Positions 58,713 to 61,025 of a DNA stretch of 64,000 nt are shown here, piece by piece (position 1 is the stretch's first letter; each line of letters starts with the position of its first letter). Position numbers and translations under genes: made by a program. The stretch lies in sequence record PQ471516.1, one strand, 5' to 3'. This DNA is from Escherichia phage Turkey5. Below the pieces are notes generated by a model. It had not been told where the DNA came from, did no database searches, and saw nothing but the letters and a program-made list of their open reading frames with translations.

Positions 58713-58720
58713 TATAAATA
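58713..58720 (+). promoter_or_regulatory. T4-type late promoter box TATAAATA
   Basis: Exact TATAAATA 34 nt upstream of ATG 58754. Confidence 0.45.
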
Positions 58721-58753
58721 CAAATGTAATTTATCTCTTTAAGGAGTATTGAA

Positions 58754-59137
58754 ATGGTTGATAAATGGAACAAGAAAAATCCATCACACGATGTGGATAT
58801 TTCAGGTCTTGACAATGAGCACAAGCATAAGTATCTAGATTCACTAGGTCTACTAAAGCCTGACCAAAGTCTATCTCATGACCGCCCTTCACGTGAAAAG
58901 GCATTCAGCCTTGAATCCTTGGGTCATGAATTGAATCGTGTATTTGAAGATCACCCAATCTATGTTCGTGATATTATTGAAAAACTTAAAGTAACTCCTA
59001 AAGAGCACTTTAAAGCAACAGTACATGCGGCGTTCCGCTCTTTGCACGAAGCACTAAAGAAAACTCATAACCTACGTAAGATTCATGATGATATCGTGAA
59101 AGCTATCGAAGGTGAGAAACATAAGTTCAAGAAATAA
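58754..59137 (+). CDS. late protein sharing SLGLL(K/N)P motif with 59481 gene
   Basis: RBS AAGGAG; YLDSLGLLKPDQ similar to YVNSLGLLNPTQ in downstream gene. Confidence 0.55.
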   Translation: MVDKWNKKNPSHDVDISGLDNEHKHKYLDSLGLLKPDQSLSHDRPSREKAFSLESLGHELNRVFEDHPIYVRDIIEKLKVTPKEHFKATVHAAFRSLHEALKKTHNLRKIHDDIVKAIEGEKHKFKK

Positions 59138-59142
59138 ACACT

Positions 59143-59170
59143 AAGGTTGACTTCGGTCAGCCTTTTTTAT
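59143..59170 (+). terminator. intrinsic terminator (UUCG-loop hairpin family)
   Basis: aaggttgac-ttcg-gtcagcctt followed by TTTTTAT. Confidence 0.7.
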
Positions 59171-59180
59171 TGATTTTGTA

Positions 59181-59209
59181 TTGACAGTGTTAAAAATAAA
59201 TTATACAAT
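59181..59209 (+). promoter_or_regulatory. sigma70-like promoter
   Basis: TTGACA, 17 nt, TACAAT. Confidence 0.55.
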
Positions 59210-59247
59210 ACTCATCTTATTGTCAAACATATTATAGGAGCGTTAAA

Positions 59248-59325
59248 ATGCAAGCAACGACAATTATCAACGTAGTAGCAGTCACCTTTATTGTAGTACT
59301 GGTAGCATTGAACCTGTTTCTATAA
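59248..59325 (+). CDS. small hydrophobic peptide (25 aa)
   Basis: RBS TAGGAG 8 nt before ATG; MQATTIINVVAVTFIVVLVALNLFL; not in ORF track. Confidence 0.4.
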   Translation: MQATTIINVVAVTFIVVLVALNLFL

Positions 59326-59334
59326 GGAGTAAGT

Positions 59335-59421
59335 ATGGGATTATATCTTGCAATTTCAAGTATTGTCTTTGTTGTTATCGTTACTGGATGGTTTGGGTAT
59401 CTAATGTTAAGTACAAAATAG
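59335..59421 (+). CDS. small hydrophobic peptide (28 aa)
   Basis: RBS AAGGAG before ATG; MGLYLAISSIVFVVIVTGWFGYLMLSTK; not in ORF track. Confidence 0.4.
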   Translation: MGLYLAISSIVFVVIVTGWFGYLMLSTK

Positions 59422-59458
59422 GTTGACTTCGGTCAGCCTTTTCTTTATACTATAAATA
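59421..59458 (+). terminator. terminator-promoter module with overlapping late-type TATAAATA box
   Basis: ggttgac-ttcg-gtcagcc, T-tract, TATACT 17 nt after TTGACT; TATAAATA at 59451-59458. Confidence 0.6.
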
Positions 59459-59480
59459 TAGTCATAGAGAATAAACCAAT

Positions 59481-61025
59481 ATGAAATCTATGGAGAGAAA
59501 TCAAATGCCAGGTCAATTTACTGATAAAAATGGTGGTAATATGGCTGGTCACTCTGATAAATGGAGTGATGCTAACCGCCGTAAGAATAGTTACCAAGCA
59601 GGTCAAGGTTCACGTGGTTCACGTAACCAAGGAACAGGTCTAGCTGGTAAAGCAAACACTGAAGCAGGTGAAGTTAAGAGTACTGAGAACATGACTGAGC
59701 TAGAGAAGCTACGCTATGTTAACTCTTTGGGTCTTCTAAACCCAACACAAAAGCAACGCCTTGCTGATATGGAACGTGCTGAGAAAGAACAAGAAGCACC
59801 ACAACCAGAACAACCTAAACCAGAAGCACCTAAAGCTGCTAACCCAGTTAAAGAGTTGTCTGACAATTTAGGTAAGATCTTTGCTAACAAACCTCAATTG
59901 ATCCAAGGTATTGTTAAAGCACTACAAGCTGTACCTAAAGAAGAACTCAAAGGTAAAGCACAAGCTGTACTGGATGCAATGAAAGGTAATAAGAGTACTG
60001 AACCAACTGAAGTATTCAGTACTATCATGCGTGCACTTGAAGGTCAAGAAGAAGCAACTGCTGAAGAAGCAAGTCTTGAAAGCATCCTCCATACTGTTGA
60101 CAGTATAGGGAAAGAAGACCGTGCTAACGCCCAGCAAGTTAAGAATGTTCTTGCTAAGTTAGAAAACCGTCTTGAAGGTAAAGATGATAAGATTCAATTA
60201 GTATATGATGCTATTAAAGCAGCATTAGATTCTTATGCACCTGGTGAGAAGTCTCGATTCATTACTGCTATGAATGCTGCATTCAATACTATGAAAAAGT
60301 ATGAAGATGAACATGGCGAGAAAGTATCAAAAGATGGTTACTTAGTTCGTGATGATGAAGAAGGGGCAGTTGACCAGAAAGATGCTGAAACATCTCATGA
60401 TGATTTACCTGATACTGTTGATATGGATGGTTACATTCATCGTCCTGAAATGGGAGAGTTTGGTTCTGACAAAGAAGGATTTGAACATGCAATGGCAGTG
60501 TACAAAGCTCTCGTGAACAATCCAGATTATGCCAACCGATTTGTAGATGAGTTTGATAGTGCATGGAACAACTACAAAGACAAAGGTTATGACTTCCCTG
60601 CTGAGGCAGCATTCTTTGAACTTGGTAAACTTTTAGCTAAACATGGAATTGATGTAGGTTCTAAAGATGGTACTGATACTGATGGCATGGAAGCAGAATT
60701 GGCTAAAGATCGTGAAATGAACGACAACTCCATTCATGAACTCCAAAAGCTAATGATGTGGATATCCGATATTGGTAAAAAAGCTGGTGCTGATAATAAG
60801 AGTATCAACAAAAACATTAGTTGGATTAAAAGTAATGTTGGTAAAAATGCTCGTAAACTACAAAAAGCATGGACTGATTTAGTAAATGGTGCTGATGATG
60901 TTGACATTGAATCACCAGAAGCATACGAATATGCATTAACTACTCTTGATAATTCCTTTAAAGATTACGATAACGGTAACGTAACTCATTGGGAAAAGGA
61001 TATCATGAACAAATACGGTAAATGA
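59481..61025 (+). CDS. late protein with low-complexity Gly/Ser/Gln-rich N-terminus (514 aa)
   Basis: Long ORF; upstream TATAAATA; EQEAPQPEQPKPEAPK repeat; possible internal virion protein. Confidence 0.6.
   Translation: MKSMERNQMPGQFTDKNGGNMAGHSDKWSDANRRKNSYQAGQGSRGSRNQGTGLAGKANTEAGEVKSTENMTELEKLRYVNSLGLLNPTQKQRLADMERAEKEQEAPQPEQPKPEAPKAANPVKELSDNLGKIFANKPQLIQGIVKALQAVPKEELKGKAQAVLDAMKGNKSTEPTEVFSTIMRALEGQEEATAEEASLESILHTVDSIGKEDRANAQQVKNVLAKLENRLEGKDDKIQLVYDAIKAALDSYAPGEKSRFITAMNAAFNTMKKYEDEHGEKVSKDGYLVRDDEEGAVDQKDAETSHDDLPDTVDMDGYIHRPEMGEFGSDKEGFEHAMAVYKALVNNPDYANRFVDEFDSAWNNYKDKGYDFPAEAAFFELGKLLAKHGIDVGSKDGTDTDGMEAELAKDREMNDNSIHELQKLMMWISDIGKKAGADNKSINKNISWIKSNVGKNARKLQKAWTDLVNGADDVDIESPEAYEYALTTLDNSFKDYDNGNVTHWEKDIMNKYGK

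Follow-up and report, generated by a model that had tools for sequence, protein, structure and literature searches.

Two genes in a jumbo coliphage, each headed by a box of the kind from which phage T4 reads its late genes, stand among small genes of early type; are they late genes, and do their products belong to the virus particle? The question is raised by positions 58,713 to 61,025 of a 64,000-nucleotide stretch of Escherichia phage Turkey5 (sequence record PQ471516.1), the whole of which is called the window here. The shorter gene is referred to as gene 1 and the longer, downstream one as gene 2. An original prediction, made by a model from the letters of the DNA, had described them as late-promoter genes sharing an SLGLL(K/N)P motif, the longer product having a low-complexity N-terminus of a kind seen in injected or internal virion proteins.

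The answer that we hold with considerable confidence is that a Rak2-like jumbo coliphage carries here a pair of paralogous genes for virion proteins, each a self-contained late transcription unit. Each unit would consist of the T4-type late box TATAAATA, a leader of ~27-40 nt with a Shine-Dalgarno (SD) sequence, the open reading frame (ORF) and an intrinsic terminator with a UUCG tetraloop, the box being read by host RNA polymerase carrying a phage sigma factor of the gp55 family. Around both late units there would be a series of early-type cassettes, made up of composite terminator/sigma-70-like promoter modules that resemble the PeSL elements of T4-like phages. The long protein would join the shared core to a conserved, basic, disordered N-terminus and to a mosaic, acidic, all-helical string of C-terminal modules, and it is probably through the conserved core that the proteins are incorporated into the particle. 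Direct evidence or close orthology establishes the structure of the genes, their paralogy, the occurrence of the proteins in purified virions from three relatives and the link between the box and late or structural genes. The observation is real, with corrections, and most of it is already in the literature or in annotations, including the virion membership of the orthologues.

The two genes and their products

By megablast of the finding region and of the first 25 kb, the window belongs to the genus Asteriusvirus, whose members are Rak2-like jumbo myoviruses that infect E. coli and have ~350-kb genomes. The nearest record is phage vB_EcoM_JNE01 (98.1% identity over window positions 1-25000 and 95.8% over the finding region), and gene order is shared with 121Q, PBECO4, G17, Sharanji and phAPEC6. 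The G+C content of the window is 35.5%, nearly all of its genes lie on the + strand, and intergenic DNA makes up 12% of it.

The product of gene 2 had been given as 514 residues long. The ORF is open from 59481 (59481-61025); the ATG at that position was rejected as the start, having no SD and not being conserved as an annotated start. The ATG at 59505 follows the SD GGAGAG and gives a protein beginning MPGQF..., the annotations of all relatives, RaK2, CBB and GAP32 included, begin at the corresponding MP..., and in alignments with distant homologues the similarity begins only at residue 9. From these comparisons the real start is almost certainly the ATG at 59505, which shortens the product to 506 residues.

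The SLGLL(K/N)P motif is present in both proteins. Judged by sequence similarity the two products are true paralogues, of which SLGLL is merely the best-conserved part: BLASTP aligns them with E = 4e-10 over ~119 residues, and in profile searches the gene 1 product matched phrog_16530 (3e-54) and the gene 2 product phrog_20398 (9e-211), with residues 9-189 of the latter also matching phrog_16530 (5.6e-40). Both families are labelled virion structural protein. Across 21 sequences K68, Y71, L75, G76 and L77 are invariant. The core common to both products, as modelled with AlphaFold2, would comprise ~100 residues, a tethered K-x2-Y-x3-SLGLL helix-turn and a four-helix bundle. The predicted bundle occupies residues 53-126 of the gene 1 product, with the motif helix tethered to it; the gene 2 product is predicted as all-helical "beads on a string" (predicted local distance difference test, pLDDT, 73; predicted template modelling score, pTM, 0.29).

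The architecture of the gene 2 product (Table 1) was drawn from alignments of 21 and 40 homologues. The composition originally described is there, a G/S/N/Q/R-rich N-terminus and a P/E/Q/K/A linker, EKEQEAPQPEQPKPEAPKAA. The N-terminus is predicted to be disordered, to which extent its description as low complexity stands, but there is more to it than low complexity, since conservation of the sequence between genera is strong and GQGSRGSRNQGTG is nearly invariant. The isoelectric point is 5.0 for the whole protein and 9.7 for the N-terminus. Apart from a deletion of the Gly/Ser/Arg segment, the gene 1 product corresponds to the ~170-residue core form of CBB_38 and GAP32_032, a derivation made plain by the intermediate homologue P0111. 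Gene 1 has 92-94% amino-acid identity across the genus. Gene 2 is mosaic; the homologue P0008 is 37% identical in residues 1-62 versus 98-99% in residues 301-506, and gene 2 of the phAPEC6 type lacks residues 301-392, a module present in the window copy. When gene 2 is compared with P0008, P0012 and P0030, its N-terminal, middle and C-terminal segments differ in their nearest relative. The C-terminal module also matches residues ~186-270 of the same protein weakly (independent domain E-value 0.01), which suggests an internal repeat.

A profile search of 1.84 billion representative proteins gave 39 matches, all of them members of a clade-restricted family, fragments of its modules or low-complexity sequence; as far as this search reaches, the family is restricted to the Rak2-like clade. 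Pfam returned no domain at E < 0.01 for either protein (only the sub-threshold noise of Tau95 and Inhibitor_I34), a profile search of PDB sequences gave no match below E = 0.3, and Foldseek with the AlphaFold2 model of gene 2 gave a best match of E = 1.0 against the PDB and only members of the same family among viral predicted structures (BFVD). A fold relative of known function, any known decoration protein included, was not found in these searches. The annotation of phAPEC6 gp035c as a "chromosome segregation" or structural maintenance of chromosomes (SMC) protein is unsupported, no SMC ATPase head, hinge or SbcC domain appearing in the Pfam and PDB comparisons. Outside the Rak2-like family, P0090, a 641-residue protein encoded on the 3.2-kb metagenome contig ERR12543003_641752 (L009 283-2208), contains six tandem repeats of ~33 residues, each with L-x2-L-(K/R)-Y-Q-N-S-L-G-L-L-D, the motif of the SLGLL helix-turn; the next gene is acetyltransferase-like and the neighbours are uninformative.

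Virion proteomics, proposed at the outset as the way to check the prediction, has already been done on relatives, and the orthologues are found in the particles of phAPEC6, RaK2 and CBB. In CsCl-purified phAPEC6 virions the gene 1 orthologue gp037c was detected with 5 peptides and 48% coverage and the gene 2 orthologue gp035c with 8 unique peptides and 28.8% coverage (PMC7247149, Table 1). RaK2 gp275 was represented by 20 unique peptides and 34.3% coverage, second to the sheath protein with 21, the major capsid protein having 10 (PMC3622015, Table S3). CBB_38 was found in CBB virions with 9 peptides and 56.6% coverage. The orthologue of the 797-residue protein encoded near the start of the window, gp158c of phAPEC6 (90.3 kDa), was likewise detected in virions, with 9 peptides (PMC7247149). 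The assignment of the gene 1 and gene 2 products as virion proteins is supported by this orthology. They are probably abundant in the particle, since the perfect box before their genes is also that of the capsid and scaffold genes and RaK2 gp275 has a high peptide count.

The late-promoter box in the window and across the genus

Exact TATAAATA boxes had been reported before both genes and before the 797-residue gene, and all three are found, each intergenic and on the + strand (Table 1). The window contains 6 copies of the 8-mer, against 8.9 +/- 2.8 in shuffles, a number not above expectation. Three of the five + strand copies are intergenic and stand 41-54 nt before the starts of genes with virion-protein orthologues; it is the placement of the box, not its number, that is non-random in the window. 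The other exact copies all lie within coding sequence, at 26357-26364 (+), 27045-27052 (+) and 24420-24427 (-), the first of them 174 nt before a 67-codon gene at 26531. By the criteria of our scan a canonical -35 element is absent 16-18 nt from the boxes, so that the claim that none has a -35 is right for the boxes themselves; it fails in that the gene 2 box overlaps a sigma-70-like promoter with TTGACT.

For a wider test of the box we chose phAPEC6, which also belongs to Asteriusvirus and whose virion proteome has been published. Its first 100 kb contain 5 copies of TATAAATA, against 20.6 +/- 4.7 in dinucleotide shuffles (5 or fewer in 0 of 200 shuffles), a depletion of ~4-fold; the 7-mer TATAAAT has 56 copies there. 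Over 250 kb of phAPEC6 the count is 14; 11 copies stand 24-64 nt before gene starts and 3 do not precede a start. Half of the 14 stand 42-55 nt before genes whose products were detected in virions, namely gp035c, gp037c, gp158c, the major head protein gp225c, the scaffold gp226c, gp238 and gp323c, and four more precede gp214c (upstream of GroES), gp232, the EndoVII-like gp234 and gp242, which adjoins a gp25-like baseplate gene. Of the 58 virion genes inspected, 34 have a weaker core, TAAATA, at a distance of 32-57 nt upstream.

The orthologues in 121Q, G17, JNE01 and phAPEC6 have retained their boxes, also where the flanking sequence is different. The box of gp158c is orthologous to that of the 797-residue gene, whose position beside a topoisomerase gene supports the orthology of the two. 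In RaK2, ATAAATA stands 33 nt before the ATG of the orthologue, and the same terminator hairpin follows the gene. The genus also has a late sigma factor of the gp55 family: CBB_244 has full-length homologues in RaK2 and in 32 Escherichia phage records (75% identity in WPEC5), and phAPEC6 gp237c is annotated as a late sigma factor. The gp55 homologue is ~280 residues long, and only its C-terminal half resembles cyanophage gp55. ATAAATA had earlier been put forward by Buttimer et al. as the CBB and GAP32 late promoter, in a study in which homologues of gp33 and gp45 were not found (PMC5259590). A literature search for a transcriptome of the Rak2-like clade gave nothing relevant. The conservation of the box, its placement in phAPEC6, the gp55-type sigma factor of the genus and the precedent of CBB and GAP32 lend strong, if indirect, support to the term late promoter used in the original prediction. 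That TATAAATA is a genuine late promoter in this genus is well supported by these comparisons, and late timing would be expected in Turkey5. This reading of the box is not new, the motif having been proposed for the clade before.

A variant of the box was seen at the phAPEC6 virion genes with RCC1 repeats, gp005, gp006, gp007 and gp010 (L011 8040-13020). Each has one common upstream module, the hairpin GCCAGTACT...AGTACTGGC, a T-run and then ATTAAATAtagtataat, that is, a terminator plus variant late box, repeated with the array.

Place in the particle and alternative readings

Within the particle, we tentatively favour the inside of the head as the location of the two proteins, as inner-body or ejection-type proteins, and this is the weakest step in our argument. 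The perfect box, the RaK2 peptide count, the disordered basic N-terminus, the paralogy and the rapid modular evolution all favour an internal, abundant role. The heads of 121Q and phAPEC6 contain a phiKZ-like inner body by bubblegram imaging, and homologues of the phiKZ inner-body proteins were not found in phAPEC6 by its authors (PMC7247149). The gene pair are reasonable candidates for this inner body because they share their box with capsid and scaffold genes and because of the high RaK2 peptide count. A stronger version, speculative and in our estimate rather unlikely, is that the paralogues are major building blocks of the inner body or of an ejected protein bolus of Rak2-like heads, with the core acting as a modular head-incorporation domain and the recombining C-terminal modules of gene 2 entering the host with the DNA.

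A number of points weigh against our reading, most of them against an internal location, which the original prediction had suggested, going further than the evidence, and which is no more than plausible. The virion data do not separate the head from the tail, the hairs or the capsid surface; they stem from the relatives phAPEC6, RaK2 and CBB and not from this phage; and the virion lists also hold likely passengers, single-stranded DNA-binding protein, RecA and thymidylate synthase (PMC7247149). Neither N-terminus, MPGQFTDKNG... or MVDKWNKKNP..., contains a T4-like targeting sequence. (L/I)xE is absent from the first 400 residues of the gene 2 product, and no such site is common to the paralogues. 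Protease-site motifs of T4 or phiKZ type were considered and rejected, none being conserved between the paralogues; the bundle ends in A-(L/I)-E-G, which is compatible with S/A/G-x-E but is missing in CBB and GAP32. Hidden Markov models of the SLGLL motif and of each module, run on the window and on 250 kb of phAPEC6, matched only genes of the gene 1/gene 2 family, and the idea that SLGLL is a packaging signal common to many virion proteins was rejected. Finally, phages of this group also have decoration and fibre proteins without gene assignment (PMC7247149).

The alternative that survives best, doubtful though we find it, would place the products on the outside, as capsid decoration or as anchoring or shaft proteins of the hair-like fibres on 121Q, phAPEC6 and CBB, the mosaic C-terminus of gene 2 then varying by exposure to the environment or the host surface. 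Capsid and tail do carry such unassigned proteins, close relatives show strong mosaicism in gene 2, a frequent trait of exposed proteins, and the peptide counts are high. Decoration and fibre proteins usually have beta-rich or immunoglobulin-like folds, however, whereas the fold predicted here is all-helical and acidic with a basic disordered N-terminus and has no match to any known decoration protein. The family also occurs in RaK2 and GAP32, and the authors of the CBB study suggest that GAP32 may be without whisker-like fibres of the CBB type.

Improbable in our view is that the TATAAATA boxes are incidental AT-rich sequence or plain -10 elements, the genes being expressed early or constitutively from adjacent sigma-70-like promoters. 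Such promoters do adjoin both boxes and make early or dual expression possible; that of gene 1, TTGAAC-17-TGaTATAAT, sits 34 nt upstream of its box, and that of gene 2 is kept in all Asteriusvirus relatives examined. The genes sit among small early-type genes, the homologue in CBB and GAP32 has a near-consensus sigma-70 promoter, TTGACA-18-TATAAT, with only an imperfect late box, TAATAAATT, which again leaves room for early or dual expression, and boxes are no more numerous in the window than expected by chance. These points meet the ~4-fold depletion of the 8-mer in phAPEC6, where 11 of 14 copies stand before gene starts that include those of the capsid and scaffold genes, and the retention of the boxes before orthologues despite differing flanks. 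Moreover, sigma-70-like consensus matches number 37 in the region against 35.5 expected from shuffles, so that the class is not enriched and these promoters are possibilities rather than findings. The two genes may be expressed both early and late. Upstream of CBB_38 (L005 2390-2500) and GAP32_032 (L006 2390-2500) the -10 region lies inside an inverted repeat, CCCCTAA...TTAGGGG, possibly a regulatory hairpin over the promoter.

It is highly improbable that the products only co-purify or are packaged passively as DNA- or assembly-associated proteins, for example as a nucleoid or "chromosome segregation" protein: the label of gp035c, the replication proteins in the virion lists and the basic, RG/SR-like N-terminus would fit, but Pfam shows no SMC or other domain, detection was independent in three phages from as many genera, at 29-57% coverage, and the perfect late box is otherwise seen on capsid and scaffold genes.

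Exchange cassettes and comparison with known systems

With a virion location for both products as the preferred reading, what remains of the locus is the setting of the two late units. Terminator-promoter modules and two tiny hydrophobic ORFs had been described between the genes, and both are seen, each ORF with its own SD (Table 1). The hairpin GGTTGAC-TTCG-GTCAGCC followed by a T-run recurs in exact copies at 59145, 59421 and 61036 (-11.5 to -18.8 kcal/mol, z -4.6 to -5.5), and there are six copies in the window. As every hairpin also serves as the -35 region of a sigma-70-like promoter, each module joins a terminator to a promoter.

Table 1. Features of the gene pair, its surroundings and the gene 2 product in the window
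Feature	Position	Strand	Remarks
TATAAATA late-promoter box before 797-residue gene	173..180	+	Directly after terminator hairpin; 45 nt to ATG
Gene for 797-residue virion structural protein	218..2611	+	phrog_13911; orthologue of phAPEC6 gp158c
Sigma-70-like promoter of gene 1, TTGAAC-17-TGaTATAAT	58651..58679	+	10/12 matches, extended -10; consensus match only
Weak hairpin GAGTTC...GAACTC, then ATTTTG	58685..58707	+	-7.5 kcal/mol, z = -3.0; between sigma-70-like promoter and late box
TATAAATA late-promoter box of gene 1	58713..58720	+	41 nt to ATG; kept in 121Q, G17, JNE01, phAPEC6
Gene 1	58754..59137	+	127 residues, phrog_16530; orthologue of 121Q gp199, phAPEC6 gp037c
Intrinsic terminator of gene 1	59143..59170	+	UUCG-tetraloop hairpin and T-run; -12.4 kcal/mol, z = -5.5
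Sigma-70-like promoter TTGACA-17-TACAAT of mini-ORF cassette	59181..59209	+	11/12 matches
Hydrophobic mini-ORF, 25 residues	59248..59325	+	SD AGGAG; no match in phage collection
Hydrophobic mini-ORF, 28 residues	59335..59421	+	SD AAGGAG; kept only in JNE01
Composite terminator/promoter	59420..59451	+	Hairpin 5' arm TTGACT (59423-59428), 17 nt, TATACT (59446-59451)
TATAAATA late-promoter box of gene 2	59451..59458	+	54 nt to ATG 59505
Gene 2	59505..61025	+	506 residues, phrog_20398; orthologue of 121Q gp201, phAPEC6 gp035c, RaK2 gp275
Gene 2 terminator, 13-bp stem, UUCG loop	61030..61067	+	-18.8 kcal/mol; fused to TTGACT-18-TATAAT serving 61096-61503
Gene 2 product, N-terminus	residues 1-62		Basic, Gly/Ser/Arg/Asn/Gln-rich; predicted disordered (pLDDT < 50), highly conserved
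Gene 2 product, helix-turn-helix	residues 63-92		Invariant K68, Y71, L75, G76, L77
Gene 2 product, Pro/Glu/Ala/Lys linker	residues 93-112		Variable
Gene 2 product, helical bundle	residues 113-179		NPVKELSD...A(L/I)EG
Gene 2 product, helical modules	residues 180-392		Variable
Gene 2 product, conserved helical domain	residues ~400-506		~100 residues, GK at end

The composite module next to the gene 2 box (59420-59451) is identical in 121Q, G17, phAPEC6 and JNE01. Composite modules with the -35 hexamer TTGACT in the stem were listed at 61015-61075, 59143-59209, 59420-59451, 55585-55616, 48876 and 57585. Megablast gave further copies of the 61-nt module at 61015-61075 in Asteriusvirus genomes, with 94-100% identity, and related sequences in Vibrio schizoT4-like phages (86% over 56 nt), Aeromonas phage 65, CBB, BF and K64-1, and the partial matches outside the genus, RaK2-like phages of other genera among them, have 86-100% identity. 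The hairpin at 59136-59176 gave no megablast match.

In all relatives the same hairpins enclose the slot between these virion genes, but the cargo varies: two mini-ORFs of 25 and 28 residues here, ORFs of 97 and 28 residues in JNE01, one unrelated 37-residue membrane ORF in 121Q, G17 and phAPEC6, and three ORFs in fEgEco12 (window 59165-59421 compared with L001 4412-4680, L003 3539-4125 and L010 726-1596). The segment 59165-59322, with the 25-residue ORF, had no match in the phage collection. On this alignment the slot is a cassette-exchange hotspot for small membrane-protein genes between identical hairpins.

Downstream of gene 2, the ORF at 61096-61503 encodes 135 residues with a signal-peptide-like N-terminus, MKKTILSVIGTVLFMVTSVASAA, has a composite TTGACT-18-TATAAT promoter upstream and no PHROG or Pfam match; the relatives have unrelated small genes at this position, for example a "lytic conversion lipoprotein" in fEgEco12. 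Three neighbouring genes for hydrophobic proteins of ~110 residues (61849-62181, 62181-62516 and 62882-63232), all matching phrog_19285, a family of unknown function, look like a local tandem array of paralogues.

As a finding, the gene pair is another set of orthologues of catalogued virion components with a motif already proposed for the clade, and to that extent it adds little. The combination of a conserved core with a mosaic tail suggests a modular incorporation domain, perhaps usable for cargo loading. The locus also illustrates clearly how PeSL-type cassettes mediate gene exchange in phages other than the classical T4-like ones.

The closest counterparts of the pair are gp037c/gp035c of phAPEC6 and gp199/gp201 of 121Q, with the same gene order, late box, terminator hairpin and SD and with identities of 92-94% for gene 1 and 73-83%, with mosaic differences, for gene 2; the phAPEC6 pair differs in that gene 2 is without the 301-392 module and the slot holds one 37-residue ORF instead of two mini-ORFs. 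RaK2 gp275 (565 residues), CBB_38 and GAP32_032 (~172 residues) share the G/S/R/N/Q segment, KY..SLGL(L/M) and the four-helix bundle. In contrast to the window, CBB and GAP32 have a single gene near the genome end, with only the ~170-residue core, and RaK2 gp275 differs from gene 2 in its C-terminal modules.

The T4 internal proteins (IPI-III and Alt) and the phiKZ inner-body proteins, which are late, packaged, paralogous and fast-evolving, provide a more distant parallel, and those of T4 also combine a conserved N-terminal part with a variable remainder, as gene 2 does. They have no sequence or fold similarity to the products described here, and the T4 proteins begin with a capsid-targeting sequence of ~10 residues ending in a gp21 (L/I)xE site, a feature that the gene 1 and gene 2 products do not have. 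The T4 late promoter is the same 8-mer, TATAAATA, without a canonical -35 on the box, placed before structural genes and matched by a gp55-family sigma factor in this genus. In T4 it is read by gp55 with gp33 and the gp45 clamp; homologues of the latter two were not found in the CBB study, and the gp55 homologue of the Rak2 clade is longer, with similarity to cyanophage gp55 in the C-terminal half only.

The PeSL elements of T4-like phages consist of a stem-loop just upstream of an early promoter, followed by an SD and a start codon (Arbiol 2010; Comeau 2014, PMC4122927). We found no description of them for Rak2-like phages in the literature. The modules at 59143-59209, 59420-59451 and 61030-61067 have this layout, and like PeSL elements the modules of the window recur among small genes that vary, and they border the places where close relatives differ by insertions and replacements. 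They differ from PeSL elements in that the -35 hexamer lies inside the stem and that one copy is fused to a late box.

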